A stretch of 64,000 bases of DNA from Candidatus Parcubacteria bacterium (GCA_021414235.1 JAIOOV010000004.1:409591-473590), one strand, 5' to 3'; shown: positions 6,172 through 36,572, numbered from the stretch's first letter. Translations and numbers: made by a program. The notes: a model not told the origin generated them from the sequence alone.

Positions 6172-6594
6172 TTACTTGAAAGCGATGAGGACAGCTCCAG
6201 CGGTAATGAGGAGGGCTCCGAGGGCTGTTTTTACCGTGAGCGCCTCCCCCAGGAAGAGCGCTGCGAAGATTATCACCAATACGATGCTGAGGCGATCGAT
6301 GGCGGAGACGCCGCTTGCCGTACCGCTCTGAAGCGCCAGGAAATAAAATATCCAGGAGAGCGCGCCCGCAATAGCTGAGAGCACGATGAAGCCAAACACC
6401 TTGGAGCCGAGGAATTCTCCCGTGAGCTTAGAGAACGATCCTGCGAAGAAGGCTACTGGAAGCAAAAAGAGCGTCATCACCACCGCCCGCAATGTAGTAG
6501 CGAGGGTTGAATCCACCCCCTTCACCCCGATCTTGCCGAAGATGGCGGTAGCCGCCGCGAGGACTGCCGAGAGAAACGCATAAAGCATCCACAT
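6172..6594 (-). CDS. small polytopic membrane protein, tentatively DMT/EamA-type
   Basis: 140 aa with 4 predicted TM helices. The EamA/DMT half-domain assignment rests only on this size and hydrophobicity pattern, not on a conserved motif. Confidence 0.55.
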   Translation of the reverse strand: MWMLYAFLSAVLAAATAIFGKIGVKGVDSTLATTLRAVVMTLFLLPVAFFAGSFSKLTGEFLGSKVFGFIVLSAIAGALSWIFYFLALQSGTASGVSAIDRLSIVLVIIFAALFLGEALTVKTALGALLITAGAVLIAFK

Positions 6595-6604
6595 AGGTTT
6601 GTTG

Positions 6605-7177
6605 TTAGCAATTAAACACCTCCTTGCCGCGCTTTACCATTTCCTGGTATTCCGCGACGATCGGGCTCTCCAGACGACGCTCCAGCACCCCGAGAACTTC
6701 CCGATAGAACCACATCTGCTCCTCGATAGGTACGCGGAAGTTCTGCCAGATGGCCTCGCCATGGATATCGAAATCACTGATGGTGGTAGAGAGGTTGTGG
6801 ATCTTGTCCGCCGCAGCGATCATGAGCCCCTCCGCACTCGCCTGCTCCAGGCCCTCCACATACGCACGCTTCCTGTCCTTCCAAGAGATCGGGGAACCAT
6901 CCCTCTCCTTCTCTTCGGTGACCTCAACCACCATCATCGCCACCCGTGAACCGAAATCGGCCTCAAGCGCCTCACGAGTATAGCCGGTGTCCTCGAGCGA
7001 ATCATGCAGGAGTCCGCCGATGACCACATCCTCGTCCTTGGCATGATTAGAGAGAAGCGCCGCCACCGAGAAGAGATGGCTCACATAGGGAATATCCCGC
7101 TTCGCCCGGCGCTTCTGTCCGTCATGGAGAAGGCAGGCGGCCCTGATGGCTTGTTCGATGCGCGGAGTAAGGTACAT
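6605..7177 (-). CDS. HD-domain (p)ppGpp hydrolase-like protein (small alarmone hydrolase / SpoT N-terminal-like)
   Basis: H...HD...LHDSLEDT pattern (LLHDGQ, LLHDSLEDT) as in RelA/SpoT hydrolase HD domains. 190 aa, with no synthetase domain. Confidence 0.65.
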   Translation of the reverse strand: MYLTPRIEQAIRAACLLHDGQKRRAKRDIPYVSHLFSVAALLSNHAKDEDVVIGGLLHDSLEDTGYTREALEADFGSRVAMMVVEVTEEKERDGSPISWKDRKRAYVEGLEQASAEGLMIAAADKIHNLSTTISDFDIHGEAIWQNFRVPIEEQMWFYREVLGVLERRLESPIVAEYQEMVKRGKEVFNC

Positions 7178-7179
7178 GG

Positions 7180-7782
7180 TTAATTTACGTGAAAAGGGAT
7201 ATGAGCGAAATCTTTAAGAAGGGTTTCTTTCAAGGCAGGATTATAAATGGCGGAAGCCGGATGGTACAGTGGAAAGATAGTAATCTCTCCGTACGAAGTC
7301 CTTGCAGGAAGAGCCTGCCCATGGAGCGCGCCGATAGTGTCGAGGCGATCCTCAAGCCCCAGCTTCTGCATGACGTAGACCATCGAGTAGCGCCCGAGAG
7401 TGGCGATCACCTTCGGCTGTATGATCTCGATCTGCCGATCAAGGAACGGTCCGTAGCTCGCGATCTCTTCCGGCAGCGGATCGCGGTTCTGAGGCGGGCG
7501 ATCCTTCACGATATTGGTGATATAGATGTCCTCGCGCGGGATATGCACGGAAGCTAAGAGCTCGTCGAGGATCTTGCCCGCGGCCCCGCAGAAGGGGCGG
7601 CCGGTCTTAGCTTCATTCCTCCCTGGAGCCTCCCCTACAAACATGATCTCTGCATCACAGCTTCCCTCACCGATCACCGGCAGATACTTGTTCTCCGTGC
7701 GATATGCGTAAAGCGGAGAGGAAGTAAGCGCCAGCACCTCTCCCTCTATCTGCCGCATCTTCTCTTTCTTCCCCTCGTTCAT
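7180..7782 (-). CDS. udg: uracil-DNA glycosylase, family 4
   Basis: Has the GEAPG motif (MFVGEAPGRNEAKTGRPFCGAAG) and the C-terminal HPSP-like motif (YHPASAIY), characteristic of family-4 UDG. Confidence 0.85.
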   Translation of the reverse strand: MNEGKKEKMRQIEGEVLALTSSPLYAYRTENKYLPVIGEGSCDAEIMFVGEAPGRNEAKTGRPFCGAAGKILDELLASVHIPREDIYITNIVKDRPPQNRDPLPEEIASYGPFLDRQIEIIQPKVIATLGRYSMVYVMQKLGLEDRLDTIGALHGQALPARTSYGEITIFPLYHPASAIYNPALKETLLKDFAHIPFHVN

Positions 7783-8060
7783 ATCTTGACCCCTTCCGCC
7801 CGAAGCTTCGCTACCTTGCGTTCAATACCTCCATTGTAGCCGCCCAGCTTGCCATCTGAACGGAGTACCCGATGGCATGGCACCTTAGGATCCTGATTGC
7901 GACTCATGACGGTACCCACCGCACGCGAGGCCCCCGGATTCCCCGCCTTCGCCGCTACCTCCTTGTAGGTCATGGTCTTTCCTTTGGGGATATCTTTGAC
8001 CACCGCGCGCACACGCTCAGCAAAGGATTTTATCTTAAACTCCGTGAGTCTTGATTTCAT
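7779..8060 (-). CDS. ogt: methylated-DNA--protein-cysteine methyltransferase, C-terminal (DNA-binding/active-site) domain only
   Basis: 93 aa containing the PCHRV active-site motif and a downstream HTH. There is no N-terminal domain. It overlaps udg by 4 nt (ATGA-type coupling). Confidence 0.8.
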   Translation of the reverse strand: MKSRLTEFKIKSFAERVRAVVKDIPKGKTMTYKEVAAKAGNPGASRAVGTVMSRNQDPKVPCHRVLRSDGKLGGYNGGIERKVAKLRAEGVKI

Positions 8061-8061
8061 A

Positions 8062-8838
8062 TTATTTCCTTACGAGAGCCTGCAGCTTCTTCCCCGCCGC
8101 TTCTCGATATGGACAATACTCGCAGGCATTACCCACCTTGGGTAATTTATCGCTCTCAAGGCAGGCCTTGATCTCGGGCAGGACCTTGTCGATCCACTCC
8201 GTCTCTCCTTCACACGGAATCACCGTTATCTCAAACTCAAGCTGCGCATCGAAAGCCGCCTTGTCCTTGCTCGCATTCGCGTACACGAAATACCCCGTCT
8301 TGGAGACTGGATATCCATTCTTACTCAAAAGCCACTGATATACGCCCATCTGCCGCTGGTACTGGGCTTCCCAGGCGGAATCAGCCAGCGTCTCGATCTT
8401 GCCGTCCTTGGACGTAGCCTTGTAATCGACAACAATGAGTTCACCCTCTGGGTTCTGCCAGACATCGTCCACTGCTCCGGAAATGACGAAACCGGTCTCC
8501 TTGTCGCGATATTCCACTCCCTTGAAATTCTCCCTCCAGACATCCATCTTCGGATCTGCAAAGGGTATGGCATCCACCCCATACGCCTTCATGAGCGGGT
8601 GCGTAGAGCCATTCGCTCGATGTACGTCGAATTCCTTCTTGAGGAGCGCGTCGACGGCAATGTTTAGAGTAAAAGACGGTCCGCGGGGACGCCCGGTGCC
8701 GAGCTTGTTATCTAAATAGAAACAACGCGGGCATTCTATGAAAAGGTCGATCTTGGAGCGGGACAGGCGCCACTTGGGACCACCGTAATTCCAATCCGGA
8801 CTTCGGTTGGGATTGTACATCTTTCGCTCATCGCTCAT
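8062..8838 (-). CDS. PD-(D/E)XK nuclease, Cas4/RecB-like with Fe-S cluster cysteines
   Basis: Has the VVDYKATS (D-x-K) catalytic motif. An N-terminal CPRC plus C-terminal CEYCPY matches the 1+3 Cys pattern of Cas4/AddB-type nucleases. No CRISPR array or cas genes are nearby. Confidence 0.65.
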   Translation of the reverse strand: MSDERKMYNPNRSPDWNYGGPKWRLSRSKIDLFIECPRCFYLDNKLGTGRPRGPSFTLNIAVDALLKKEFDVHRANGSTHPLMKAYGVDAIPFADPKMDVWRENFKGVEYRDKETGFVISGAVDDVWQNPEGELIVVDYKATSKDGKIETLADSAWEAQYQRQMGVYQWLLSKNGYPVSKTGYFVYANASKDKAAFDAQLEFEITVIPCEGETEWIDKVLPEIKACLESDKLPKVGNACEYCPYREAAGKKLQALVRK

Positions 8839-9494: not shown

Positions 9495-10334
9495 TTAAAA
9501 ATGACTCTCGCACACCGAGCGAGCCTCGGTGAGAACCCGCTTGAGCTTCTCCCCGGTTATGCCGAAGCCAGGCATCTCTCCCTCCCTCTCCCCCAGAGTC
9601 TTACAGAGCACAATCCCCGCCTGCATGAGCCGCGTCTTGTCTGCCCCCGTAAGCGAAGTAAGGCAGGTCAGCGGGTGAGCTTGGGCCTCCTCGATGAGAT
9701 CCTGCAGGTTGCCGTAGCGGGGATAGGTCCAGCTCACGAGCTTCAATCCCGAGCAGTTGGCATAGGTCACCGCCGCCTTGGTGAATTTGGTATTGGTGAT
9801 GAGCCAACCCTCGTCGATGAGCCGCTCGCCCCGCTTAACGCGGAACTTGCGGATGTCTTCCACCCGCGCGTTCACATAAAGGGCTACCTTGAGGTCGCTC
9901 TTGAGGCCGAGCTGGTTATGGAACTTGATCTCCCCGATGATGTATTTGTTCGGCGTATGCGCGACAAGATCCACTTCATGCTCGACGCAGGAGCCGGAGA
10001 GCATCTGGCCCGTAGCTACAGTAAAACCACGAGAGCGGAAGATCTCCCCGATGTAATCCTCAAACGGGAACCCAGAGGGGCCGAGGGCGAGTACTGCGCG
10101 CTTAAGAGAGTATCGTGCGGCTACCGGCTTCTCGATAGTGCGCAAGAGCTCGAACGCCCGCTTATATATCTCATGCGTGCCAATACCCGAAGTGAGAGAG
10201 GTGCGCACTCCCTTCAGCACCTCGTTCACTACCTTTGGCTTGGCACCCGCGCGCTCCAGCGACTGGATGAGCTTGGAAGGATCGAAGGGCTCCTGATCCC
10301 CATTAGCCTTAGTGACAAGTATGGTTTTGGGCAT
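9495..10334 (-). CDS. ATP-cone domain fused to restriction-endonuclease-like PD-(D/E)XK (Mrr-like) nuclease domain
   Basis: The N-terminal ILVTKANGDQEPFDPSKLIQSLERAGA matches an ATP-cone. The central part has a D...E-x-K motif (HEVDLVAH...IIGEIKFH) on a restriction-endonuclease-like fold. The C-terminal ~100 aa are unassigned. Confidence 0.6.
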   Translation of the reverse strand: MPKTILVTKANGDQEPFDPSKLIQSLERAGAKPKVVNEVLKGVRTSLTSGIGTHEIYKRAFELLRTIEKPVAARYSLKRAVLALGPSGFPFEDYIGEIFRSRGFTVATGQMLSGSCVEHEVDLVAHTPNKYIIGEIKFHNQLGLKSDLKVALYVNARVEDIRKFRVKRGERLIDEGWLITNTKFTKAAVTYANCSGLKLVSWTYPRYGNLQDLIEEAQAHPLTCLTSLTGADKTRLMQAGIVLCKTLGEREGEMPGFGITGEKLKRVLTEARSVCESHF

Positions 10335-10821: not shown

Positions 10822-11940
10822 CTAAGGAGTGGCGACTACTCCGCCTCCCAGACACTCAGAACCAGCGTAAAAGACCACCGACTGCCCGGGAGAGACGAGG
10901 AGAGGTGTGGAAAAGACGGCTTGCACCTTGCCCTTCTTAACTTCTATGCGGCACGGATGCCGCTCCCCATGGTAGCGGATCTCGGCTTCCACTACTGCGC
11001 CTGGTAACCCCTTGGGATTAACGCTCTGAACCCCTTCGAGAGGAATCCGTACACTACCCTTCATTGCTCCAGGCGTCGTAGAGACAGTGAGCGTATTCGC
11101 CTGAATATCCTTGCCGACCACGTAAAGCGGCTTCTGACCGGTCCCGGAGGCTTCCACGGAGAAACCGTGCCTCTCGCCCAGGGTATAGAGCGCTGCCCCA
11201 TCGTGAGAGCCGATTGTCTTCCCCTTGGTATCGAGCACGGCTCCTCGCTCGGTCTTTAAATGACGTGCAAGGAAGTCTTTCATATCTACCATCCCGAGGA
11301 AGCAGATACCCTGGCTATCCTTCTTTTCTGCTGTGGGCAGCTTGAAGCTCTTGGCCTCGGCGCGTACGGCGCTCTTCTCCATGTACCCTATCGGAAAAAG
11401 GATCTGCGCGAGCTCCGCCTGTCCGAGCGCATAAAGGAAATAGGACTGATCCTTCTTCGGATCTGCCCCGCGATGGAGCTCATATACATTAGTCCGCTGG
11501 TTATATATCCGCTGTGCGTAGTGACCCGTCGCCACCAGATCCGCACCCTGCTCGCGCGCAAAGCGCAGGAACGCGCCGAACTTTATCTTCCGATTACACA
11601 TCACATCGGGATTCGGCGTACGCCCCTTCGCGTATTCCGCGATCATATAATCGGCCACTTCACGCTTGTACTCCTCTTCCAGATCGAGCGTACGGAACGG
11701 GACATTGAGGAGAGCGCAGACTCGCATAGCATCCAATCGATCCTCCTTAGCCGTGCAGTACACGTAAGAAGGCTGCCAAGTCTTGATGAAGACGCCGGTG
11801 ACGTCGTAGCCCTGCTCCTTGAGGAGCGCGAGTGCCACCGAGCTATCCACTCCGCCAGAGAGGCCGACGAATACCTTCTCCTTCCCGTTCTTTTCCTGCT
11901 GCATGCTTCCGACTTTACGTGCGCTATGCTGAATGGTCAA
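10822..11940 (-). CDS. mnmA: tRNA-specific 2-thiouridylase MnmA
   Basis: PP-loop motif VFVGLSGGVDSSV, and full-length similarity pattern to MnmA/TrmU. An alternative start at ~11904 (MQQEKNG) is possible. The ORF start at 11940 overlaps the mltG stop. Confidence 0.9.
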   Translation of the reverse strand: MTIQHSARKVGSMQQEKNGKEKVFVGLSGGVDSSVALALLKEQGYDVTGVFIKTWQPSYVYCTAKEDRLDAMRVCALLNVPFRTLDLEEEYKREVADYMIAEYAKGRTPNPDVMCNRKIKFGAFLRFAREQGADLVATGHYAQRIYNQRTNVYELHRGADPKKDQSYFLYALGQAELAQILFPIGYMEKSAVRAEAKSFKLPTAEKKDSQGICFLGMVDMKDFLARHLKTERGAVLDTKGKTIGSHDGAALYTLGERHGFSVEASGTGQKPLYVVGKDIQANTLTVSTTPGAMKGSVRIPLEGVQSVNPKGLPGAVVEAEIRYHGERHPCRIEVKKGKVQAVFSTPLLVSPGQSVVFYAGSECLGGGVVATP

Positions 11941-12908
11941 TTTGTCTTGAGATACCGAGCTTTATTCTTGAGATGCTCCGCGTAGGTGCGGGCGTAGTAA
12001 AAGACGCCGTTTGTACCAGTCAGATAGTAGAGATACGGACTCGTGGTGGGCGTGAGCGCCGCTTGGAGCGCATCTATCCCCGGATTATTAATAGCCGTAG
12101 GCGGCAGCCCTTTGTTGATATACGTATTGTAAGGAGAATCCACAGCGAGATCCTCTCGCGTGAGATCGAAGCTCGTCTTGCCGATGATGTACGCGAACGC
12201 CGCATCCACCTGGAGCGGCATATCGATAGAGAGCCTCTTCCAGAGAACCCCGGCTACTTCCTGCCGATGACGCGTAGTACTGGCCTCCCCTTCAAGGAGC
12301 GAAGCCATGACCACAATCTGTTCGAACGGCTTCCCAAGAGCCGCAGCCTGAGTGCGCAGAGCGGCTGTGCGCTTGTCGAATTCAGCCCGCATCGCTTCCA
12401 CTACGCGTGCCGCAGAAGTACCCGGGAGGAAGAAATACGTCTCAGGAAAAAGATACCCTTCTTGGCCTTTGGCCGCCTCTAGGAAACTCTCCGCGGAGCA
12501 GCCAATGAGGTTACGCTCACAGATCTGAGCCATCTCTTTGAGAGTGATCCCTTCAGGAAAAGTCAGCTTCACGGGAGCAAGACCGAAATCCCCGCGGACA
12601 AGACGGAGTGCGAGTGCATACGATCCCTGGGGCTGATCCAGAAGGTATGCCCCTGCACGGATGCCATCTCCTGCCGCACGCACCAAGAGAGTGAGGAGGC
12701 TTGAAGAGTAGACCGCATGCTGTTGTTCAAAAAGAAGCGCTGCGCCGCGCACGCTGGTGCCCTCAGGCACAGTGACGATGGCGCCCTTCGGGAATTCCTC
12801 TGGCGCCAAAGAGAGGAGGGCAAAAGAAGCATAGGCGGCTAGAGCGATAAGCGCTGCCGAAAGAGTCACCAGCACGAGGGGACGGTGAAAGAATGGAAGA
12901 AGCGGCAT
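11937..12908 (-). CDS. mltG: endolytic murein transglycosylase MltG (YceG family)
   Basis: N-terminal TM helix plus YceG-like C-terminus (YLYYLTGTNGVFYYARTYAEH). A paralog lies at 37917..38876. Confidence 0.85.
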   Translation of the reverse strand: MPLLPFFHRPLVLVTLSAALIALAAYASFALLSLAPEEFPKGAIVTVPEGTSVRGAALLFEQQHAVYSSSLLTLLVRAAGDGIRAGAYLLDQPQGSYALALRLVRGDFGLAPVKLTFPEGITLKEMAQICERNLIGCSAESFLEAAKGQEGYLFPETYFFLPGTSAARVVEAMRAEFDKRTAALRTQAAALGKPFEQIVVMASLLEGEASTTRHRQEVAGVLWKRLSIDMPLQVDAAFAYIIGKTSFDLTREDLAVDSPYNTYINKGLPPTAINNPGIDALQAALTPTTSPYLYYLTGTNGVFYYARTYAEHLKNKARYLKTN

Positions 12909-12917
12909 ATGAAAAGA

Positions 12918-14195
12918 CTAGCGAGGCAGGTTATCCGGCGCTTCCATCTTCTTGGCCATGGTGCGGGTGATGCCTGGGGTCGCAGCAACGGATCCTGGGA
13001 AGTGCCAGATGGTCGCAAGTTCCTCGGTAGAGAGCACATACGCTTTCTTTTTATAGGGAGGGTGGAACCAGGAACGCGTACGATACGCAGCGAGCTTCTT
13101 CTTACGCAGCTTATTAGCCCTAATCTGCTGGAAATCCTGCCAAGGGAAGTCGTTGAGGTTACTGTCCTCCTTGAAGGCGAAGGAATTCATATTACGGGTA
13201 TAGAACGGCTTCATGATCTGCACGTAGCCGGAGATACGCCCGCCGTTGAAATTCTCCGGCTTGGCCATATATGCCATGCGCATGCCGAAGTCGAAGAGCG
13301 GCTTGGAGAGCTTGCGCTCGATAGCTGCAATGATCTCGCCCTCACCCTTCGTGGGAATACGAGGGAAGGTCGCGCCCTCCGGCTTGAAGGAATCGAGGAG
13401 CTTCTTGATGGTCTCTTTCCCTTCTGTGCCCATATCCGCATCAGACTGGCCGCCCATGTCTCCGAAGGGGAATTTGTCTTTGACGTGACCTTCCGCATGC
13501 ACCTGGATGAGGAATTGCATCCAGACCTGCTCGCCCTTCCCGATCATGGAGATATATTCAAGCACTGTCGTGAGCGGATCTATCTTGAACTCCTCCTTGG
13601 GGTCCTTGTCGAGCTCGTAATCGACGTATGTCTTGATGGGATATGAATTCAACGGGTGCTTATGCTCGTCTTCCTTCTTCATCTTGAAATCACAGATCCA
13701 CACGCTCATCTGGGTAGGGTCGAAGTACGGGAAAGCTTCGGTATAATCCGGCACCTCGGTTATCTCAATACCAGGATACTGGCTGTAAAGGGATGCTTCT
13801 ACGACGTTTTTAAACTGAGCGCGTGTCCAGACATAGAAATGGATGTTGCCTTCGATCGAAGCGATTTCGAGTGAGAACCAAGGACGCACCTTGCCGTTCA
13901 CGTAGCGATCCCACCAAGTGCTCTCTCCGCTGCCGTTATGGAAATGCGTAAGAGCGAGCTCCATGGCTCTCGGCGAACGCAGCACCTCCCTCGGTAGCTT
14001 GATCTCCAACAAAATGTATTTCTGGCTCTGGATGAAATCCCTACGCTTATAGGCGATCCACATACGCCAGAAGAAGAGTCCGAAGACCGGAGGTCCCCAG
14101 AACGGAATGAAGCGCACCACGTAACCGAGACCCTGGACAAAGGTCCCGTCGGAGAACGGCTGAAAGAAGAGGTCGTAAAAAAAATCGAGACCCAT
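12918..14195 (-). CDS. conserved hypothetical protein (425 aa) with N-terminal hydrophobic anchor
   Basis: Long uninterrupted ORF with non-repetitive composition and a hydrophobic N-terminus (FIPFWGPPVFGLFFWRMWIA). No P-loop or other catalytic motif recognised. Conserved-looking C-terminal motif LSTEELATIWHFPG. Confidence 0.65.
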   Translation of the reverse strand: MGLDFFYDLFFQPFSDGTFVQGLGYVVRFIPFWGPPVFGLFFWRMWIAYKRRDFIQSQKYILLEIKLPREVLRSPRAMELALTHFHNGSGESTWWDRYVNGKVRPWFSLEIASIEGNIHFYVWTRAQFKNVVEASLYSQYPGIEITEVPDYTEAFPYFDPTQMSVWICDFKMKKEDEHKHPLNSYPIKTYVDYELDKDPKEEFKIDPLTTVLEYISMIGKGEQVWMQFLIQVHAEGHVKDKFPFGDMGGQSDADMGTEGKETIKKLLDSFKPEGATFPRIPTKGEGEIIAAIERKLSKPLFDFGMRMAYMAKPENFNGGRISGYVQIMKPFYTRNMNSFAFKEDSNLNDFPWQDFQQIRANKLRKKKLAAYRTRSWFHPPYKKKAYVLSTEELATIWHFPGSVAATPGITRTMAKKMEAPDNLPR

Positions 14196-14243
14196 TATGG
14201 GCCGAATTATAACATGAGGGTAGAAAGCAGCGAATGCTGCTAT

Positions 14244-14268
14244 ACGAAAAAAGACGGGTTTCCCCGTC
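14244..14268 (-). terminator. rho-independent terminator downstream of the sigma-r4 domain gene
   Basis: Minus-strand hairpin GACGGG-GAAA-CCCGTC followed by TTTTTT. Located between the 14290 stop and the 14195 start. Confidence 0.55.
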
Positions 14269-14289
14269 CTCAGCTATCTCCCCTCTGGC

Positions 14290-15321
14290 TTACGCAGAGA
14301 GCGCGTATTTCCCATCCTTCCCCTTCTTGAAGATGTTGGAGTTCTGGAGATTCACCAAGACGGTGTTCGGCTTCACATAGCGCTCCTTGAGGACCTTCTC
14401 GATGATCTGGTCCTTGGTCATCGGGCCGTATTTCTTGAGCACGTCACGGATGACATCCTTAACCACGCCGCTCGAATATCCCCACTCGGAGAGCGCGTAG
14501 AGACCGCGACCGACGAGTACGAAGCGGGGATCCTTGATGAGCTCATTGTGGCAGGTAGCCACATGCGCCTTGCGATCGAAGAGCTTCTGGATGGCCTTGG
14601 CGACCTCGGAGAAGTGCATCGGAGAGCCGTGGCGACGGATGGCGAGATACGCGAAATCACGCATACCCTTGGCACGGACATTGGAGGAAGCGGCTACGCC
14701 CCACTCGCCCAGAGGATTCTTGGCGATCTTCTTGGAAAGGGAGAGCCAGCGGCGTACGATCTCCTCGTCCTTGTAGTGTTCGGAAATATCTTTGACCGTA
14801 TCGAGGAAGCTCGAAATCATCTCGGATTCCGGGATGAGAGAGTCATCCGGCATGTTCTGATAGAGCTTGCGGAGAGAGCCTTCCACCTGCTCAGCGATAT
14901 CCGGGCTCACGTACCAGCGATGATGGAAATCAAGGTCTTCTTTCTTCTTCTTGAAAGAGTCGCCGAGCACGAGGAGGAAATGGAAATGATTCTGGGTGCT
15001 CTCGTCCTTAGAGAGGTGCTCGAGGAATTCAGCCTCCGGTACCACGCCGCCAAGGACGGTGATGGCCTTCTCGAGCTCCTCGAAGGCGGCCTTCTCCTTC
15101 TTGTAGTGCTCGGACTTGCGGATGGTGGTGAAGGCGTAGTTCTCGATCTGGCGCACGCGTTCCCGAGTGATCTTGTAGGTGCTGCCGATGGACTCCAAGG
15201 TCATGCGCTCGGGAGAGGTGCCGAGGCCGTAGCGGCTCACAATCACGTTGCGGGCACGCTCCGGAAGCGCCATGAGGAGGCGCTTGACGACTGCTTTGGG
15301 TTTGAAGGTGATAGTAGCCAT
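14290..15321 (-). CDS. DNA-binding protein with N-terminal sigma-70 region-4-like HTH and C-terminal winged-helix (HARE-HTH-like) domains
   Basis: The N-terminal LPERARNVIVSRYGL...LESIGSTYKITRERVRQIENYA is a classic sigma-70 region 4.2 HTH. The C-terminal PMHFSEVAKAIQKLF... resembles HARE-HTH / winged helix. It has no sigma region 2, so it is not a sigma factor. Confidence 0.6.
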   Translation of the reverse strand: MATITFKPKAVVKRLLMALPERARNVIVSRYGLGTSPERMTLESIGSTYKITRERVRQIENYAFTTIRKSEHYKKEKAAFEELEKAITVLGGVVPEAEFLEHLSKDESTQNHFHFLLVLGDSFKKKKEDLDFHHRWYVSPDIAEQVEGSLRKLYQNMPDDSLIPESEMISSFLDTVKDISEHYKDEEIVRRWLSLSKKIAKNPLGEWGVAASSNVRAKGMRDFAYLAIRRHGSPMHFSEVAKAIQKLFDRKAHVATCHNELIKDPRFVLVGRGLYALSEWGYSSGVVKDVIRDVLKKYGPMTKDQIIEKVLKERYVKPNTVLVNLQNSNIFKKGKDGKYALSA

Positions 15322-15382
15322 ATCAGGGGGTGGTGTGGTCTAATTTTTAGCATTTACTACAACACACGTCAAGTCCTGCGCA

Positions 15383-18226
15383 TCAAATCACGAAATTGAT
15401 GATCTTCCCGGGAACAAAGATGCGCTTTTTGATCACTACCCCCTTAAGCCACTTCTCCATCTCCGGCAGCTGCTCGGCCTCTCTGAGCGCTTCGGCCTCC
15501 TCTACCCCCATAGAAAGGAGGAGCGTCGCCCTCACTTTGCCGTTCACCTGCACAGCGATAGTAGATTCCGTCTGCACCAGCTTCTTCGGATCAGCTACCG
15601 GCCAGATTTCCTTGTGGATGGACTTCTTGCCTCCCATCTCCTGCCAGAGCTCCTCGGTGATATGCGGCGCAAAGGGCGCTAAGAGCTGCAAGAGGGTCTT
15701 GTATGCAGAGAGCGGTACGGCAGCTTCCTTCTCCAGAGCGTTCTGCAGCACCATCATCTGAGAGACCGCGGTATTGAAACGCATCGCCTCGATGTCTTTT
15801 CCTACCTTCTCGATACTCTGGTGGAGAAGTGTCTCCGTAGCGGAAGAGAGGGTTCCCTTCTTGGCGACCTTCTCCTTGAGGCGCCAGATGCGCTCCAGGA
15901 AGCGGTACATGCCCACCAGGCCGTCGTCATTCCAGGCGATCGCCTGATCGAAAGGTCCCATGAACATCTCATAGAGGCGCAGGCTGTCCGCGCCGAAACG
16001 CTCCACCACATCATCCGGGCTTATACCGTTCCCCTTGGACTTGGAGATCTTCTCGCCGTCCGCCGCCAAGATGAGGCCGTGCGAGGTACGCTTCATATAT
16101 GGCTCTGCGGTCGGTACGAGCCCCTGATCAAAGAGGAATTTGTGCCAGAAGCGGGAGTACAGGAGATGGAGAGTGGTGTGCTCCATGCCGCCGTTGTACC
16201 AATCCACCGGCGTCCAGTGCTTGAGCATCTTCTCGCTCGCGAACGCCTTGCTGTTCTTAGGATCAGCATAGCGAAGGAAGTACCAGGAGGAACCGGCCCA
16301 GTTCGGCATCACGTCCGTCTCGCGGCGTGCCGGACCCTTACAGGTCGGGCACTTCACTTTGACCCACTTCTCAATGGTCGCAAGCGGCGACTCTCCGTTA
16401 TCAGTAGGCTGGTAGTTCTTCACCTTGGGAAGCTCCACCGGAAGGTCCTTCTCAGGCACTCTCACCCAGCCGCACTTCTCACAGTTGATCATGGGGATAG
16501 GCTCGCCCCAGTAGCGCTGGCGGGAGAACACCCAATCACGGAGCTTGAAGGTGGTTTTCTTTCTTCCACCTACCTTCTTTACGATCTTGTCCTTGGCTTC
16601 CTCGCTCTCCATGCCGGAGAATTCTCCGGAATTCCCGAGGATGCCCGGGCCCGTATGAACGAAACCCCTATCACTCACCACAGAAGAGATGAATTCACCT
16701 TCGAACACCGTAAAGAAGCTCTTGAGTTCTTCTTCCTTCTTCCACACGACTTCATGTAGTGCCGCCTCGTTTTCTTCCACCGAAGCCCGTGCCTCATCCT
16801 TCAGTTCAAAAAATACGTAATGGAACCGTGCCCAACGATTCTGCTTCTTGATGCGGTGGTAGAACTGCGTCTGAACGACCCAGGAAGGCTCCTCCACAAG
16901 ACGTAGGTTCATATACCCCGTCTCCTCAAGAACTTCGCGACGGGCAGCCTCTACCACGTCTTCTCCCTCTTCTAAGCCGCCAGTCACTAAGCCGTTCATA
17001 GCCACACCCTTCCAGCTGACACAGAGGTACGTATCGTTTTTGGGGTTACGCACCACTGCACAGATCGCCTCGCGTTTTACGAGAGGCAACTCAGGATGAA
17101 TCTTGTCTTCTCCCTTACTACTAATGAAAAGTGGCTCGACGACACGCTTCACCGGCAGTTCAAACTTCTTAGCAAAAGCGAAGTCGCGCTCATCATGCGC
17201 AGGCACTGCCATGAGCGCACCTGAGCCGTACTGTGCGAGGACGAAATCAGCCACGAAAACCGGCAGCTCTTCCTGATTCGCCGGATTTATCGCTTTTACA
17301 CCCACGAGCTCTACCCCGGTCTTCTCCTTGCCTTCCGCAGTACGCTCCATCTCACTCGCCTTCTTGGCTTTGACCACGTATTCCAGGACCTCCTTCTTGT
17401 TTGAGGCCTTCTCTGCGAATTGAGCGACAAGCGGATGCTCCGGCGCGAGCACTACAAAGGTAGCGCCGAAGAGCGTATCCGGACGGGTGGTGAAGACGGT
17501 CAGCTTCTCAGCGCTTCCCTTGATGCCGAAATCAATCTCCGCGCCCTCGCTCCTGCCGATCCAGTTCCTTTGCTGCAGCTTAATCTTCTCGAGGAAATCC
17601 ACGGTATCGAGGTCCCTGTCGAGACGCTCCGCATACTTGGTGATGGCGAGCATCCACTGCTCCTTCTCGCGCTTCTCCGTCTCCGTGCCGCAACGCTCGC
17701 ACTTGCCGTCGATGACTTCTTCGTTAGCAAGGCCAATCTTGCACTTCGGACACCAGTTGATGGATGCTTTGTTCTTGTACGCCAATCCCTTCTCGTGGAG
17801 CTTGAGGAAGATCCACTGGGTCCAGCGATAGTAGGCGGGATCGGTGGTGTTCACCTCGCGGGACCAGTCGAAGGAGAAGCCGATGGACTTCAGCTGACGC
17901 CGGAAGTTATTAATCGCCTTCTTGGTGATGATTGCCGGATGGATGCCGGTCTTGAGAGCATAGTTCTCTGCAGGAAGCCCAAAGGCGTCCCAGCCCATGG
18001 GATAGAGCACCTCGTAGCCTTCTGCGCGGCGCTTGCGAGCCACCACGTCCATGGCGGTGTTACTCCTGATATGGCCCACATGCATGCCCTCGCCGGAGGG
18101 GTACGGGAACTCGATGAGGAGATATGACTTCTTTGTACCCTTCTTCTCGGTAGCCTTGTTAGCCCCAGACTTCTCCCACACGGCCTGCCACTTCTTCTCG
18201 AGCTTCCGGTGGTCGTAGGCCTTCAT
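15383..18226 (-). CDS. leuS: leucine--tRNA ligase with an inserted NUDIX hydrolase domain
   Basis: Class I LeuRS: HVGH (HIGH) motif, TTRPDT editing-site motif, AVPAHDERD, LRDWVFSRQRYWG and KISKS (KMSKS). Residues ~372-533 are an extra domain containing a perfect Nudix box GGLEEGEDVVEAARREVLEETGY. The ORF begins at a TTG (18244). The ATG at 18226 (MKAYDH) is preferred. Confidence 0.9.
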   Translation of the reverse strand: MKAYDHRKLEKKWQAVWEKSGANKATEKKGTKKSYLLIEFPYPSGEGMHVGHIRSNTAMDVVARKRRAEGYEVLYPMGWDAFGLPAENYALKTGIHPAIITKKAINNFRRQLKSIGFSFDWSREVNTTDPAYYRWTQWIFLKLHEKGLAYKNKASINWCPKCKIGLANEEVIDGKCERCGTETEKREKEQWMLAITKYAERLDRDLDTVDFLEKIKLQQRNWIGRSEGAEIDFGIKGSAEKLTVFTTRPDTLFGATFVVLAPEHPLVAQFAEKASNKKEVLEYVVKAKKASEMERTAEGKEKTGVELVGVKAINPANQEELPVFVADFVLAQYGSGALMAVPAHDERDFAFAKKFELPVKRVVEPLFISSKGEDKIHPELPLVKREAICAVVRNPKNDTYLCVSWKGVAMNGLVTGGLEEGEDVVEAARREVLEETGYMNLRLVEEPSWVVQTQFYHRIKKQNRWARFHYVFFELKDEARASVEENEAALHEVVWKKEEELKSFFTVFEGEFISSVVSDRGFVHTGPGILGNSGEFSGMESEEAKDKIVKKVGGRKKTTFKLRDWVFSRQRYWGEPIPMINCEKCGWVRVPEKDLPVELPKVKNYQPTDNGESPLATIEKWVKVKCPTCKGPARRETDVMPNWAGSSWYFLRYADPKNSKAFASEKMLKHWTPVDWYNGGMEHTTLHLLYSRFWHKFLFDQGLVPTAEPYMKRTSHGLILAADGEKISKSKGNGISPDDVVERFGADSLRLYEMFMGPFDQAIAWNDDGLVGMYRFLERIWRLKEKVAKKGTLSSATETLLHQSIEKVGKDIEAMRFNTAVSQMMVLQNALEKEAAVPLSAYKTLLQLLAPFAPHITEELWQEMGGKKSIHKEIWPVADPKKLVQTESTIAVQVNGKVRATLLLSMGVEEAEALREAEQLPEMEKWLKGVVIKKRIFVPGKIINFVI

Positions 18227-18244
18227 AGTCCCTGGATAATACAA

Positions 18245-21659: not shown

Positions 21660-23318
21660 TTGACGGAGATCGTTTTTCCTGTTACCCTTCTTCCACTTAT
21701 GTGGAACTTCATCAACATGCTGATACGGGAGGAGATCTGGTTTGAGCGTTTCGCACGCAAGCACGTCCTCGGAGCCCTCGCAGGAGCCATCCTGCTCGGT
21801 CTCGGCGCAGGGTATTTCCTCCGCGGAGGCCCAGAAGCAGAGGAAGTGGTAGCAGAGAGTCGCATACGCGAGGTTAAAGTCGCCTCTGTCGCGGAACTCT
21901 CCGGCACCGCTACCACCCTCCCCCTCGTAGGCACCGTCACTTCCGAGAGTGAAGCCTCTATCAGCGCACAGTCTTCCGGCGAAGTCCGCGCCATATACAA
22001 GAAGCTCGGTGATTTCGTGGCAGCAGGCAGCATCATCGCGGAGATCGAGAACAGCAGGGAGCGCGCCACCGTGCTCCAGGCCCAGGCAGGAGTCGAGAGT
22101 GCCAAGGCGGGTAAAGCCATCTCTGAGAGCGGCGCCTCCATCTCTGAAACGAGCAGCGAGAGCGCCAAACGCGCTCTCGAGGAAGCCCGTGTCGCTGCAG
22201 TGAACTCCCTTCGTAGCGCCTACGATGCTGCAGATGACTCCGTGCGCTCCAAGCTCGACCTCATGTTCAGCAACGCCCGCACCCAGAATCCCCAGTTCAA
22301 TATCACCGTGAGCGACAGCCAGCTCCCCATCGACATCAACTTCAAGCGCCTCAATATCACCGATATTCTGGCGCGCGAAACCGCCCGCAAGGCTTCTCTC
22401 TCCGTTACCAGCGATCTTGCTAAAGAGATCAGCCTCGCAGAAGCGGACCTCCGCTATATCAAAGATTTCAATGACGATGTCATCCTGGCCCTCAACCAAG
22501 GCATCGCTTCCCAGTCCGTAAGTCAGGCTACGATAGATAGCTTCAGGACTTCCGCCGCAGCTACGCGTTCTACTCTGAACGCCGCTATCTCTTCCCTCTC
22601 CTCTGTGCGCGACAATCTCAGCATCAAGGCCTCCCAGCTCGAAGTATCCTCCCAGCAGACCGGCTCCTCAGGCTCTTCCGTCTCGAGCTCAGAGGCAGTC
22701 ATCAAGCAGGCCGAGGCCACGCTTCGTCTCGCACAGGTCTCCCTTGAGAAATCCTTCATCCGCGCGCCGATCAGCGGCACCCTGAACAGCTTCTCGCTGA
22801 AGCGCGGTGATTTCGTCTCGCTCTCCCAGCCGGTGGCAGTCATCTCCAACAACAACGCACTCGAGGTGGTGAGCTATATCACTGAAGAGGATGCCGCCTA
22901 CGTAGCCGTCGGAAGCAAGGCGACCATAGGGGAATCAGTCGCGGGCGTGGTCACCCGCATCGCTCCCGCTCTTGATCCCAAGACCCGCAAGATCGAGGTG
23001 CGCATCGGCATCACCGGCTCTTCGAGCCTCATCAACGGCCAGACCGTGAGCCTCTCCCTCATCCGCGCGCCTAAGACAAGAAATGTCTCCCAGAACGCCC
23101 CTCTCACCGTACCTATCTCCGCCCTCAAGATAACCCCAGCGGGTTCCTTCGTGTTCACTATAGGCGCGGAAGGAAAGCTCGTCGCGCACCAGGTCAAAGA
23201 AGGACTCCTCCTCGGCGACCGCGTAGCCATCTCGGAAGGACTCACCTCCGACATGCATATCGTGACCGACGCCCGCGGCCTCAAGGAAGGGATGAGCGTG
23301 ACCGTTAAAGCTGAATAA
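21660..23318 (+). CDS. efflux RND transporter periplasmic adaptor subunit (membrane fusion protein, HlyD family)
   Basis: N-terminal TM anchor, long coiled-coil region, and a C-terminal beta-barrel/MP domain (VAVISNNNALEV, TVPISALKITPAGSFVF). Immediately precedes the RND permease gene. The start may be an internal Met. Confidence 0.8.
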   Translation: MTEIVFPVTLLPLMWNFINMLIREEIWFERFARKHVLGALAGAILLGLGAGYFLRGGPEAEEVVAESRIREVKVASVAELSGTATTLPLVGTVTSESEASISAQSSGEVRAIYKKLGDFVAAGSIIAEIENSRERATVLQAQAGVESAKAGKAISESGASISETSSESAKRALEEARVAAVNSLRSAYDAADDSVRSKLDLMFSNARTQNPQFNITVSDSQLPIDINFKRLNITDILARETARKASLSVTSDLAKEISLAEADLRYIKDFNDDVILALNQGIASQSVSQATIDSFRTSAAATRSTLNAAISSLSSVRDNLSIKASQLEVSSQQTGSSGSSVSSSEAVIKQAEATLRLAQVSLEKSFIRAPISGTLNSFSLKRGDFVSLSQPVAVISNNNALEVVSYITEEDAAYVAVGSKATIGESVAGVVTRIAPALDPKTRKIEVRIGITGSSSLINGQTVSLSLIRAPKTRNVSQNAPLTVPISALKITPAGSFVFTIGAEGKLVAHQVKEGLLLGDRVAISEGLTSDMHIVTDARGLKEGMSVTVKAE

Positions 23319-23321
23319 TCC

Positions 23322-26300
23322 ATGCTATCCCTCTGGAAATTCTTCCTGGAGAAGCGCCAGTTCAGCATCCTCCTCATCGGAGCGCTGATCATCGCCGGCA
23401 CTTTCTCACTCTTCGCCATCCCTAAGGAGTCCTCTCCTGAGGTGGAGATTCCCATTGGTATTGTGACCACCGTGCTCCCGGGGGCTTCGAGCTCAGATGT
23501 GGAGAAGCTCATCACCGACAAGATGGAAGAGGAACTCGCGAACCTCGAGAACATCGATACGCTCACCTCTACCTCCCGCGAAGGGCTCTCCGTCGTCTCG
23601 GTGCAGTTCCTGGCAAGCGCCAACCTTGATAAGTCCATCCAGGACCTCAAGGATGCGGTAGACAAGGTAAAGAACGAACTCCCCAGCGAAGCTACCGATC
23701 CGCAGGTGCTACGCATCAACTTCGCAGATGAGCCGGTACTCATCATCTCAGTCTCAAGCGACGTCCCACCCGCCGCCTTCACTGCGCTCTCCGAGGATCT
23801 CAAGGCGGAACTCCGCGCAGTGAAGGGCGTCTCTAAGGTAGAGATCTCGGGCGTGCAGGCACGCGAAGTGCAGGTCATAGTACGGAGCGAAGCACTCTCC
23901 CGTTACGGATTGCGCCTCACCGACGTAATCGGAGCCCTCCAGGCCAGCAATAGCTCTCTCCCCATCGGCTCCATCACTCAGGACGGTATCGAGTACGCCA
24001 TCAAGTTCCGCGGGGAGATCGAAGCACCTTCTGAGATCGGCAACATCGCTGTCCCGACACAGAACGGCATCGTGTATATCCGCGACATCGCCGCGGTATC
24101 GGATGGCTTGAAGCGGGCCACTTCCCTCTCTCGCACCTCCGTCGAGGGCGCCCCCTCCGAACAGGCTCTCTCTCTTTACGTATTCAAAAAGTCTGGCGAC
24201 AACGTCACTGAAGTAGCCCAGTCCGTCAAAGACAGGCTCGAGGCTCTCAAGAGCGGTCTTCTGCTCGGCTCAAACGTAGTCATCTCCTTCGACCGCGGAG
24301 AGTTGGTGATGAAGGACCTTTTGGAACTCACCCAGGTGGGCTTCGAGACCGTGGCCCTCGTGATGATCCTCCTCTTCCTGACCATCGGCTGGCGCGAAGC
24401 ACTCGTTGCCGGCCTCTCCATCCCCCTCTCCCTCCTCATCGCCTTCATCGGCCTCCACACTTCCGGCAACACCATTAACTTCGTCAGCCTCTTCTCTCTC
24501 ATCCTCGCCGTGGGCATCCTGGTGGACTCCGGCATCGTGGTCACCGAAGCCATCCAGGCGCGCATCGCACGCTTCGGCACGCCCATGGCTGCAGCTCATG
24601 CCGCAATCGAGGAATATGCCTGGCCGCTCATTGCCGGCACCATGACTACGGTAGCCGTATTCGCGCCCCTCTTCTTCATCTCCGGCATCACCGGCAAGTT
24701 CATCGCCAGCATCCCCTTCACCATCATCTTCGTACTCATTGCCTCGATCATCGTAGCGCTCGGCATGGTGCCACTCATCGCCGTCCTCTTCACCAAGCAG
24801 AGTAAGAATAGTTTCGAGATGAAGCAGGAGATATATACGGAGCACGCCAAAGAATGGTACCGTCGCAAGCTCCGCGCTTTCCTAGAGAACCGCCGTCAGC
24901 AGAAGATCTTCCTCTGGACCCTCATGGGTAGCTTTGTCATCGCCCTCCTCCTCCCGGTAAGCGGGCTTCTCAAGGTGACCTTCTTCCCCGGAGGCGATTC
25001 CGATTTCATATATATCGACCTGGAAAAGCCACAGGGCACGACACTGCGCGAGACTGATCTTGCCGTACGTGCCGTGGAGGAATACCTCTACGAGGATCCG
25101 CGCATCGAGAGCTTCGTTACTACCATCGGCGAGAGCTCCCGCTTCAGCGAATCTTCAAGCCAGAACCCTAAGCTCGCCAACATCACCGTCAATCTCCACA
25201 AGGAGCGCGATTACACCAGCACCGAGCTCCTCAGCGACCTTAAGAAGGAACTCTCTGCGGTACAGTCACTCGACATCCGTATCGTAGAGCCTTCTAACGG
25301 CCCGCCCACCGGCGCACCTATTCTCATAAAATTCACGGGAGACGATTTGGGCGAACTCGAATCCGTCGTGGATCGTGCAGAGCGCCTCCTCACGGAAGTC
25401 CCTGGCACGAGCGACATTCAGACCAGCATGAAGGATGACGGCACGCAGTTCACCCTGACCATAGACAAGGCCAAGGCGGCGCAGGTAGGCCTCACCCCGG
25501 CTGCAGTCGGGAGCACGCTCCGCGCAGCCATCAACGGCACCACCGCGACCGTGCTCAAGCGCCAGGACAAGGACATCGACGTAGTCGTGAAGCTCGACCT
25601 CAATCCCCGCTACCGCACCGCAGAAGAGACTACGGAGACGACAGTGGACAGCATCCGGCAGATTCCCATCGCTACCCCCTCCGGCACCGTTCTCCTCGGC
25701 TCCGTGCTCACCATCACCCCGGAGCGTGCGAATGCTGTGATCCAGCACGAAGATCGCAAGCGTATCGGCTCAGTCTCCGCCTTCCTCGCGCCGGGCGGCA
25801 ACGCCCGTGACGTAAAGGCAGCCTTCGAAGCCCGCCTCAGCGAGCTCGAGCTTCCCACGAGCGTCACCTACTCCTTCGGCGGCGAGAACGAAGAGGTGGA
25901 CAATTCCTTCCGCGACATGTTCCTCGCCCTCATCGCAGGTCTCGTGCTCATGCTCTCCATCCTGGTGCTCGAATTCAATTCCTTCCGCTACACCCTCTAC
26001 CTCCTCTCCATCGTGCCGCTCTCACTCGTAGGCGTGCTCGGAGGACTCGCCCTCACCGGCCAGACCCTCTCCTTCCCCTCCATGCTCGGAGTGATCGCAC
26101 TTGCCGGCGTCATCATCAACCACGGCATCATCCTGCTCGACTCCATGATTCACCTCTTGAAGCGCGATGCGAATGCAAATCCCATGGACGTAGTCGTGGA
26201 ATCCGCCTCCGTGCGCCTCCGCCCTATATTCCTCACCACCATCACCACAGTCATCGGCATGGTGCCGCTCACTTTCGCCTCTTCTCTCTGGGGCCCGCTG

Positions 26301-35089: not shown

Positions 35090-35118
35090 TTGACTTTTGT
35101 ATTAATATGTGATAGCAT
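35090..35118 (+). promoter_or_regulatory. sigma-70-type promoter (TTGACT-17-TAGCAT), member of a recurring TTGACTTT promoter family
   Basis: TACTTGACTTTtgtattaatatgtgaTAGCAT lies ~70 nt upstream of the preferred start at 35187. Near-identical architecture is seen at 36501 and 47885. Confidence 0.5.
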
Positions 35119-35186
35119 TTTTGCCAGACCCAAACGGGTACCCTGACAATCGGATCGAGACGATCCCCCGACTCGAGAAAGGACTA

Positions 35187-36437: not shown

Positions 36438-36458
36438 TTTGCCTTGCCGAACAGCAAA

Positions 36459-36489
36459 CCCCGTCGCTCTCGCGACGGGGTTCTTTTTA
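36459..36489 (+). terminator. rho-independent terminator
   Basis: Stem CCCCGTCGC-TCTC-GCGACGGGG followed by TTCTTTTTAT. Confidence 0.65.
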
Positions 36490-36500
36490 TGCTCTGTTAC

Positions 36501-36529
36501 TTGACTTTATTTAATAAACGTGATATCAT
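36501..36529 (+). promoter_or_regulatory. sigma-70-type promoter (TTGACT-17-TATCAT), TTGACTTT family
   Basis: TACTTGACTTTatttaataaacgtgaTATCAT lies ~45 nt upstream of the ATG at 36573 (RBS AAAGAGG). Confidence 0.5.
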
Positions 36530-36572
36530 TCTTACAAAGCCCTTTAACAAGTTCGCAGAAAGAGGTTCTCCC

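Follow-up and report, generated by a model that had tools for sequence, protein, structure and literature searches.

The window analysed here is a stretch of 64 kb from a Patescibacteria (Parcubacteria/Paceibacteria) genome (GCA_021414235.1, JAIOOV010000004.1:409591-473590). On its minus strand lie two neighbouring genes, encoding proteins of 343 and 425 amino acids, which a first-pass annotation made from the sequence had picked out as a pair of conserved unknowns between mltG and leuS. Both open reading frames (ORFs) are real, with the boundaries and the flanking genes then proposed. Neither can be a chance ORF, because each has thousands of relatives: at E <= 1e-30 the 343-amino-acid protein falls among 716 clusters at 50% identity, nearly all of whose members are 340-380 amino acids long, while the family of the 425-amino-acid protein, DUF8128, has at least 6,000 relatives. 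The latter protein is 100% identical to the NCBI entry 'hypothetical protein K8Q93_03315 [Candidatus Parcubacteria bacterium]' (P0001). Neither gene is peculiar to the source genome: each is a typical representative of its very large family, and the two open a gene set whose members remain linked across the Patescibacteria. The features of the locus, with positions counted from the first nucleotide of the window, are as follows.

14290..15321, minus strand: gene for the 343-amino-acid sigma-4/tandem winged-helix protein ('Sig4HARE'), from the ORF, Pfam, NCBIfam, AlphaFold and homologues
15112..15300, minus strand: sigma-70 region 4 domain, residues 8-70, including the recognition helix T52-R-E-R-V-R-Q58, from Pfam, the PDB profile search and Foldseek
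14695..15093, minus strand: two acidic winged-helix-like modules, residues 77-209, where conservation is lowest, from AlphaFold
14476..14679, minus strand: HARE-HTH winged helix, delta-subunit-like, residues 215-282, the most conserved module, from PF05066
14299..14463, minus strand: C-terminal basic winged helix, residues 287-341, with the conserved stretch KERYVK.NT..VNLQ
12918..14195, minus strand: gene for the 425-amino-acid DUF8128 protein, from the ORF, PF26449, AlphaFold and Foldseek
14049..14141, minus strand: hydrophobic, aromatic-rich helix, residues ~19-49, followed by KRRD, a probable membrane anchor, from hydropathy and AlphaFold
12993..13034, minus strand: signature motif LSTEELATIWHFPG, residues 388-401, from family-wide conservation
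12921..12965, minus strand: C-terminal tail ...R..AKK.EAP.NLP, a candidate docking peptide, conserved and of low model confidence
15343..15372, minus strand: promoter of the 343-amino-acid gene, with -35 element TTGACG (15372..15367), a 17-nucleotide spacer and the TG-extended -10 element TGcTAAAAAT (15352..15343)
14250..14271, minus strand: intrinsic terminator after the 343-amino-acid gene, GACGGG-GAAA-CCCGTC followed by T6
14206..14214, minus strand: TG-extended -10 element TGTTATAAT of the 425-amino-acid gene, ending 10 nucleotides before the ATG at 14195
15383..18244, minus strand: leuS, upstream of the 343-amino-acid gene
11937..12908: mltG/YceG, downstream of the 425-amino-acid gene, with mnmA beyond

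The 343-amino-acid protein begins, as first described, with a genuine sigma-70 region 4.2 helix-turn-helix that is unaccompanied by regions 2 and 3, a point on which Pfam, NCBIfam, a profile search of the PDB and Foldseek all agree. Sigma70_r4 (PF04545) is matched at residues 16-69 (E = 2e-13; 49.9 bits against a cut-off of 24.1), and across Pfam and NCBIfam only region 4 is matched, over residues 9-86, with no hit to regions 2 or 3. All NCBIfam matches are to the C-terminal region 4 of RpoD, RpoS and RpoH, apart from a sub-threshold match to the delta-subunit model RNAP_delt_lowGC (TIGR04567; 30.7 bits, under the cut-off of 42). When a profile built from 49 homologues was compared with the PDB, sigma region 4 of RpoD/SigA provided the sole solved matches (E = 1e-11). 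The AlphaFold model (mean predicted local distance difference test, pLDDT, 86.5) consists of the sigma-4 head at residues 8-70 and then winged-helix-like modules at residues 77-137, 140-209, 220-277 (the HARE domain) and 287-341. According to Foldseek the head lies within a root mean square deviation (rmsd) of 0.9-1.5 Å of sigma-4 structures, at 35-44% identity, including the DNA-bound 3n97 and 1ku7; the deviation from 3n97 is 0.9 Å. The body resembles the tandem winged-helix arrays of UFL1/DDRGK1, Dcc1 and RPC62, with weaker statistics than the head.

The HARE-HTH domain that had been placed at the end of the protein is present (PF05066 at residues 223-280; E = 1e-9; 38.9 bits against a cut-off of 25.9), but it is not terminal, as a fourth winged helix at residues 287-341 comes after it. 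Its conserved core in this family, H..NELIKD.RFVLVGRGLYAL.EWGY, fits the ..D.RF....G.W.L..W-type core of the PF05066 superfamily. The earlier phrase 'inverted architecture relative to sigma factors' is not a useful description of a layout that comprises sigma-4 followed by a tandem winged-helix array. The net charges of the modules differ considerably: +10 for sigma-4, -5 for each of the two middle modules, +6 for HARE and +7 for the last winged helix. Conservation is likewise uneven among 139 representatives of 50%-identity clusters, in which the middle acidic modules have a mean agreement with the window residue of 0.21-0.27 and the HARE module of 0.56, while in the last winged helix R314, T320 and L325 are retained in at least 90%.

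The helix T-R-E-R-x-R-Q (T52, R53, E54, R55, R57 and Q58) is invariant both among 49 close homologues and in six lineages at 32-39% identity, and is retained at 90% or more across the 139 representatives. We take these residues to be the equivalents of T583, R584, E585, R586, R588 and Q589 of Escherichia coli sigma-70, the readers of the -35 hexamer. As the exact DNA-contacting side chains have been kept, the protein would be expected still to bind TTGACA-like DNA, since a role in folding only, or in protein binding only, would not require these residues. The suggestion that the protein may bind -35 elements is therefore plausible, judging from the invariance of the contacting residues.

Despite its head, the protein is not a sigma factor: it has no region 2 or 3, and the same window encodes a complete RpoD. 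In the absence of regions 1.2, 2 and 3 it is unable to engage the core clamp or to melt a -10 element. A split sigma, in which the 343-amino-acid protein supplied a missing region 4, was also rejected, because the RpoD at 59624..60883 has regions 1.1, 1.2, 2 and 3 and carries its own region 4. The likeness to the sigma-70 family (RpoD/SigA region 4) is thus one of fold, of Pfam domain and of an identical -35-contacting helix; the differences are the missing regions and the position of sigma-4, which here is N-terminal with four winged-helix modules after it. The second relevant comparison is with the delta subunit (RpoE) of Bacillota, an accessory subunit bound to RNA polymerase. The HARE-HTH domain is shared with it, PF05066 being matched above its cut-off, and a profile of the C-terminal half searched against the PDB has as its top match the Staphylococcus aureus delta subunit 8x6g_E, weakly (E = 0.019). 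However, delta ends in an acidic, disordered tail, whereas the C-terminal 59 amino acids of the 343-amino-acid protein form a structured winged helix of charge +7 in the model; the protein also differs by its additional sigma-4 domain and two more modules, and by scoring under the NCBIfam cut-off for delta.

The second protein belongs to DUF8128 (PF26449), a domain found on the identical NCBI protein, from whose precomputed annotation the assignment was taken, and on all 120 listed homologues. Two of the features first ascribed to it were borne out: it lacks a catalytic motif, there being no Walker A motif (G....GK[ST]) in the sequence and no match to an ATPase family in Pfam or NCBIfam, and its C-terminal motif is conserved. 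In LSTEELATIWHFPG, the residues E391, E392, A394 and T395 never vary, and at least 90% of sequences have H398 and G401; the motif is kept in the distant lineages too. The N-terminus proved to be moderately hydrophobic, the top 19-residue Kyte-Doolittle window scoring 1.22 at residues 23-41. For this reason a membrane anchor here is likely rather than certain; DUF8128 homologues with longer N-termini have clearer hydrophobic segments. By the positive-inside rule, the bulk of the protein would lie in the cytoplasm. The C-terminal tail is probably disordered in view of its low model confidence (pLDDT 51-56), and within it P420, L423 and P424 are invariant; the EAP.NLP ending is also present in lineages where an ATPase gene starts 3-5 nucleotides later. 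No anti-sigma domain was matched in the protein at E <= 1 in Pfam or NCBIfam.

The AlphaFold model of the 425-amino-acid protein (pLDDT 86; predicted template modelling score, pTM, 0.85) has as its top solved matches in Foldseek only TrwK/VirB4 (R388 type IV secretion system, T4SS; 7o42_A), with E-values of 2e-5 to 1e-3 and a probability of ~1 but low TM-scores. Unlike VirB4, DUF8128 lacks the C-terminal Walker A/B ATPase domain and has no detectable sequence similarity to it. It also lies outside any T4SS cluster: in the loci inspected no VirB6, VirB3, pilin or relaxase is found nearby, and its neighbours are leuS, mltG, mnmA, secDF and similar genes, unlike those of a VirB4 in a T4SS cluster. 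The N-terminal parts of Bacillus phage proteins (phage G gp156, Slash, JL) have a predicted DUF8128 fold, and in viral models these match much better (E = 1e-13 to 1e-15; TM-score 0.48-0.52), gp156 with an E-value of 1.5e-15; these proteins are, however, 550-910 amino acids long and phage-encoded. There is in addition a short sequence match between DUF8128 and phrog_5156, a phage profile of 824 positions. An origin from mobile elements was rejected on the basis of phage, plasmid and viral-contig searches. A tblastn search of plasmids with DUF8128 gave no match, searches with DUF8128 patterns found no relative in a viral contig collection and none by sequence in phage or plasmid records, and the matches of the 343-amino-acid protein in phages are limited to the sigma-4 pieces of phage sigma factors.

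A further parallel is offered by TrsD/TraD of pGO1/pSK41, with which DUF8128 shares the concept of a VirB4-N-terminal-like polypeptide encoded apart from its ATPase. TrsD proteins that stand alone and are akin to the N-terminal part of VirB4 are reported to be widespread in Patescibacteria (PMC12102498). These TrsD-like genes mostly adjoin virB4, whereas DUF8128 adjoins the sigma-4 gene. An identity of DUF8128 with TrsD was not upheld by hhalign, which found nothing against pGO1 TrsD or TrsE (probability <1%; 0.4% for TrsD), a weak comparison as the targets were single sequences.

The level of conservation of the gene pair was studied among close and distant relatives. With each GTDB species represented by one genome, a scan gave at least 598 loci, of which the best 80, whose sigma-4 proteins are 61-70% identical, were examined. 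In 74 of the 78 assessable loci the gene next downstream of sigma-4 is that for DUF8128, and two more loci end at a contig edge. In four loci (L014, L075, L076 and L084) the sigma-4 gene is not followed by DUF8128 in the available sequence; L084 looks frameshifted. Within this clade adjacency alone says little, because the whole block DUF5671-leuS-X-Y-mltG-mnmA-(ATP-cone protein), where X and Y are the pair, is syntenic, often with ychF upstream too. Identity within the clade is 65-75% for the 343-amino-acid protein and ~45% for DUF8128. Among distant relatives, in all eight loci taken from 50%-cluster representatives 32-39% identical to the 343-amino-acid protein, DUF8128 is the next gene on the same strand after sigma-4, while the flanks differ. 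The sigma-4 gene is preceded by the dnaK operon, secDF, glycosyltransferases or murD, and what lies downstream of the pair also differs from locus to locus. Conservation of the pair outside the source genome, on which the first-pass annotation had made its proposal depend, thus holds in both sets. The gap between the two genes in the distant loci is 31-277 nucleotides.

In six of the distant lineages a third gene follows DUF8128, encoding a VirD4/TrwB-type ATPase of 507-667 amino acids with matches to TrwB_AAD_bind, DUF87, TraG-D_C ('TraM recognition'), T4SS-DNA_transf, conju_CD1115 and CedD. The chain of this protein begins only a little ahead of the Walker A motif and lacks any membrane segment. 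The gap from DUF8128 to the ATPase gene is -4 to +52 nucleotides, and lies within 5 nucleotides in four of the six. The sigma-4 protein and DUF8128 both average 38% pairwise identity over the six lineages, and the ATPase 60%. No ATPase gene follows DUF8128 at a Campbellbacteria-like locus (L089). A search with a query spanning the junction recovered one protein, P0416, that runs in frame across DUF8128 and the ATPase; it offers weak support for a fusion, because its contig has 1.8x coverage and is frameshifted. In a survey of type IV secretion in Patescibacteria, 5,713 VirD4-like coupling-protein homologues were counted in 2,918 genomes, only 148 of them near virB4, and the authors suggest that these homologues have perhaps been exapted for another function (PMC12102498).

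Some variation is also observed on the upstream side of the sigma-4 gene. In three lineages secDF lies directly upstream, and in a fourth (L088) it is joined to it, a 659-amino-acid gene call at 6385..8364 of that locus combining SecF with the sigma-4/HARE protein, which may represent either a fusion or a missed stop codon. At a further locus (L091) a secF-like gene is found further upstream, with murD in between.

The two genes are separate transcription units. The 343-amino-acid gene has a strong, near-consensus promoter, the layout of which recurs upstream of sigma-4 orthologues, 83 of 89 loci scoring at least 9 of 12 for TTGAC[ATG]-17-TGnTAnAAn. Between the genes, the terminator and the extended -10 element TGTTATAAT are both present as originally noted, and under a strict search a perfect hairpin with a T-run is found at the equivalent position in 42 of 87 related loci. 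No -35 element or Shine-Dalgarno sequence was seen before the 425-amino-acid gene. This appears to be typical, as a TAnAAT hexamer 5-10 nucleotides before the ATG is usual at DUF8128 genes, including those of distant loci (L086, L089), with no -35 element and no ribosome-binding site. Because the -10 element ends so close to the ATG, the DUF8128 mRNAs would be leaderless or near-leaderless across Patescibacteria classes. With separate promoters and a terminator between them, the two genes have stayed together although they form no operon. Inspection by eye and position counts across related loci revealed no conserved operator or TTGACA between the genes, the -10 element alone recurring. A perfect palindrome, AGCAGC-ATTC-GCTGCT, lies at 14226..14241 on the minus strand, between the terminator and the DUF8128 -10 element, and is not conserved in related loci. 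The first-pass annotation had further regarded TTGACTTT as a recurring promoter element. This 8-mer occurs four times in the window against 1.4 expected, and since six of 100 shuffles also reach four, it is not clearly enriched; a special status for the sequence was rejected, as TTGAC[A/T] is the ordinary -35 consensus of the clade.

Published genetics bear on the pair through Southlakia epibionticum, for which transposon insertion sequencing (Tn-seq) data are given in Tables S1 and S2 of PMC10633639, the text of which discusses neither of the genes concerned. Annotated there as 'RNA polymerase sigma factor RpoS', the 349-amino-acid product of SEML1_0294 matches PF04545 (27-72) and PF05066 (225-283), is parsed into one tri-helical and three winged domains, and belongs to a family flagged as core and as Patescibacteria-enriched (PMC10633639). 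For this gene each of the three time points gave an essential call (ES/ES/ES), with 1, 1 and 2 insertions recovered against 24 in the input DNA (PMC10633639). The next gene on the same strand, SEML1_0293, encodes 921 amino acids with TrwB_AAD_bind at 402-719 and a P-loop domain starting from about residue 361, leaving ~360-400 residues N-terminal to the ATPase part; it carries the same two family flags and was called non-essential (NE/NE/NE), with 82 input insertions and 87, 120 and 110 recovered (PMC10633639). Since the loss of SEML1_0293 is tolerated, the essentiality of SEML1_0294 cannot be put down to a polar effect.

SEML1_0294 is likely to be the counterpart of the 343-amino-acid protein, given its similar length (349 against 343 amino acids), the same two Pfam domains at the same positions, and a TrwB-type protein downstream in the same orientation. 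Its 'RpoS' label is a mis-annotation of what is really a sigma-4/winged-helix protein. The Southlakia locus differs in that a single chain of 921 amino acids lies downstream, whereas the window has DUF8128 alone and no ATPase; DUF8128 and the ATPase are probably fused in Saccharimonadia. The earlier statement that both proteins were uncharacterised accordingly needs amending: the 343-amino-acid protein has a look-alike that is annotated 'RpoS' and was scored essential in published Tn-seq (PMC10633639 Table S1), and the 425-amino-acid protein is a DUF8128 member with a VirB4-like predicted fold, translationally coupled in other lineages to a VirD4/TrwB-type ATPase. Among the other Southlakia genes is an essential, canonical ftsK, whose product carries a gamma domain of its own; the tables name neither a delta nor an omega subunit (PMC10633639). 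Another protein of the same organism, SEML1_0142, has 1019 amino acids, is described as 'TraM recognition domain-containing' with a P-loop domain at 381-800, and is essential, unlike SEML1_0293 (PMC10633639 Table S1); its N-terminal ~380 residues could be another DUF8128-like module. A literature search found no paper mentioning DUF8128 and none on a sigma-4 plus HARE-HTH protein, and in the literature searched neither the three-gene association nor the true nature of the Southlakia 'RpoS' is described.

The explanation that best accommodates these observations, held tentatively with a probability of roughly 0.45, is that the 343-amino-acid protein is an essential, phylum-specific DNA binder associated with promoters or RNA polymerase, linked by adjacency to an orphan, split coupling-protein-like motor. 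Its sigma-4 head would bind promoter DNA of the TTGACA type, while the basic HARE and C-terminal winged helices would hold further DNA, RNA polymerase or both; it would thereby unite a sigma-type and a delta-type module, each otherwise known as part of an RNA polymerase subunit. It may act as an essential general transcription co-factor, either as a sigma-4 in trans or as a delta-like accessory subunit. That its main task is a general one is suggested by the essentiality of the likely counterpart where the motor is not essential. DUF8128 would represent the membrane-anchoring, VirB4-N-terminal-like half of the split motor, a reading preferred because an ATPase gene without a membrane segment directly follows it elsewhere and because of the probable Saccharimonadia fusion. 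Since the adjacency persists, a second, dispensable link is also envisaged, in which the 343-amino-acid protein controls the promoter of the adjacent DUF8128/ATPase genes or hands DNA to the motor.

Several points weigh against this interpretation. Binding of DNA and of RNA polymerase is, for every member of the family, a prediction made from sequence, and a single beta-flap cannot seat two sigma-4 domains, so that with a full RpoD present an RNA polymerase-bound role would need another docking site. The sequence similarity between HARE and delta is weak, as the E-value and the sub-threshold TIGR04567 score given above indicate, and the VirB4 fold match has low TM-scores (0.34-0.38) and an rmsd of ~8 Å, the aligned part of VirB4 not being reported. 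No ATPase gene was found in the 64-kb window or within 10 kb either side of the 80 clade loci by phmmer with three ATPase orthologues, nor was a TrwB-type ATPase found by Pfam on all large ORFs of the window, so that in this organism the split-motor reading of DUF8128 is an extrapolation. The probable orthology with SEML1_0294 and SEML1_0293 is judged from length, Pfam coordinates, domain parse and neighbourhood. Finally, essentiality differs between the two proteins, and would be shared if they worked only together.

Of the other explanations, one makes the 343-amino-acid protein the sequence-reading subunit of a membrane machine that would take up, export or exchange DNA, loading DUF8128 and the VirD4-like ATPase onto the DNA or orienting them. 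TraM and TrwA play such a part for conjugative coupling proteins, as does the winged-helix gamma domain for FtsK. FtsK gamma with the FtsK orienting polar sequences (KOPS), Streptomyces TraB with its recognition sequences (TRS), and TraM with TraD can each be cited by analogy, and by analogy only, as a winged-helix or helix-turn-helix reader working with a hexameric ATPase of the FtsK/TrwB class at the membrane; in contrast, the reader considered here would be a separate essential protein of promoter-type specificity. A DNA-loading role would suit the strict order of three genes across classes despite changing flanks, the TrwB_AAD_bind and TraG-D_C domains of the ATPase and its match to the archaeal DNA-importing ATPase CedD, the three basic modules of DNA-binding type, and the exaptation suggested for orphan VirD4-like genes (PMC12102498). 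It cannot, however, be the sole job of a protein whose likely Southlakia counterpart is essential beside a dispensable motor, in a cell that already has a canonical essential FtsK with a gamma domain. The clade in which the 343-amino-acid protein is most conserved (65-95% identity) has no ATPase at the locus, the genes are separate transcription units, and TTGACA, being present at every promoter, would be a poor unique loading site; this alternative is therefore doubtful. Less likely still is a dedicated local regulator of the adjacent DUF8128/ATPase promoter, perhaps essential because a de-repressed membrane ATPase is toxic. Regulator genes typically stay beside their targets, as is the case here, and the target promoter is unusual enough, consisting of a -10 element only, near-leaderless and behind the regulator's terminator, that it might need a factor acting in trans. 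Yet the intergenic regions contain no conserved operator or TTGACA element, the supposed target is far less conserved in the clade than its regulator (~45% against 65-75%), an invariant helix identical to that of the housekeeping sigma predicts recognition of most promoters rather than one, and five modules exceed the needs of a local repressor.

A sigma mimic, competing with RpoD region 4 for the beta-flap, the -35 element or both, thereby lowering expression globally, and sequestered at the membrane by DUF8128, would explain why the order of the genes, sigma-like followed by membrane protein, mirrors that of extracytoplasmic function (ECF) sigma/anti-sigma pairs. The sigma-4 fold hardly differs from that of authentic sigma factors, and the conserved, probably disordered C-terminal peptide of DUF8128 could serve for docking. 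This is nonetheless highly improbable, as DUF8128 matches no anti-sigma domain in Pfam or NCBIfam, its predicted fold and partner gene point to machinery of the VirB4/VirD4 type, the two genes are not co-transcribed, and essentiality would hardly be expected of a protein that did nothing but inhibit housekeeping transcription. Both inhibitor-only and adaptor-only versions fit the essentiality data poorly. The absence of any functional link, with one protein belonging to transcription or chromatin, the other to the envelope or secretion, and their adjacency an inherited order, is consistent with the synteny of the whole ychF-DUF5671-leuS-X-Y-mltG-mnmA block in the clade, with the differing essentiality and with the separate transcription units. 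It is very unlikely all the same, because the pair survives at 32-39% identity with all other neighbours changed, and probably in Saccharimonadia too, and gene order is rarely kept at such depth without selection. A last and unlikely possibility takes the 343-amino-acid protein as a hitherto unrecognised, essential accessory subunit or general initiation factor of Patescibacteria RNA polymerase, with a sigma-4 head acting in trans on a TFE/RPC62-like tandem winged-helix body, which would also physically tie promoters, or transcribing polymerase, to a membrane-anchored, split VirD4-type motor. If this were true, transcription would be coupled to the passage of nucleic acid or protein, outwards or inwards, where the epibiont meets its host.

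A general promoter- or polymerase-associated factor, the interpretation preferred here, would be of interest because a large part of bacterial diversity belongs to the Patescibacteria, whose transcription machinery is assumed to be standard. With an unchanged -35 reader outside any sigma factor, and being phylum-wide, enriched and apparently essential, the 343-amino-acid family is a strong candidate for a lineage-specific core component of transcription. S. epibionticum is the only genetically tractable member. Its conserved association with DUF8128 and the ATPase may in turn provide a setting for some of the many coupling-protein homologues recorded as orphans in thousands of genomes of the phylum.

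Other genes of the window also have unusual features. The LeuS protein contains an inserted NUDIX domain at residues 391-507 (PF00293; E = 3.5e-12), directly after the editing domain, which is present in some orthologues (L001, 960 amino acids) and absent in others (L004, 790 amino acids). At 9495..10334 on the minus strand, a 279-amino-acid protein combines an ATP-cone with an Mrr-type restriction-endonuclease fold, an unusual domain pair, and its gene is kept downstream of mnmA throughout the clade. Two adjacent plus-strand ORFs, at 35109..36437 and 36444..37670 (442 and 408 amino acids), are without a Pfam match; a copy of TTGACTTT lies 12 nucleotides upstream of the former, and a second copy ~57 nucleotides inside the listed start of the latter. 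Finally, an RCC1-repeat protein (26440..27513, minus strand) and an efflux pair of the HlyD/AcrB type (21660..26405, plus strand) are unusual cargo for a reduced genome.

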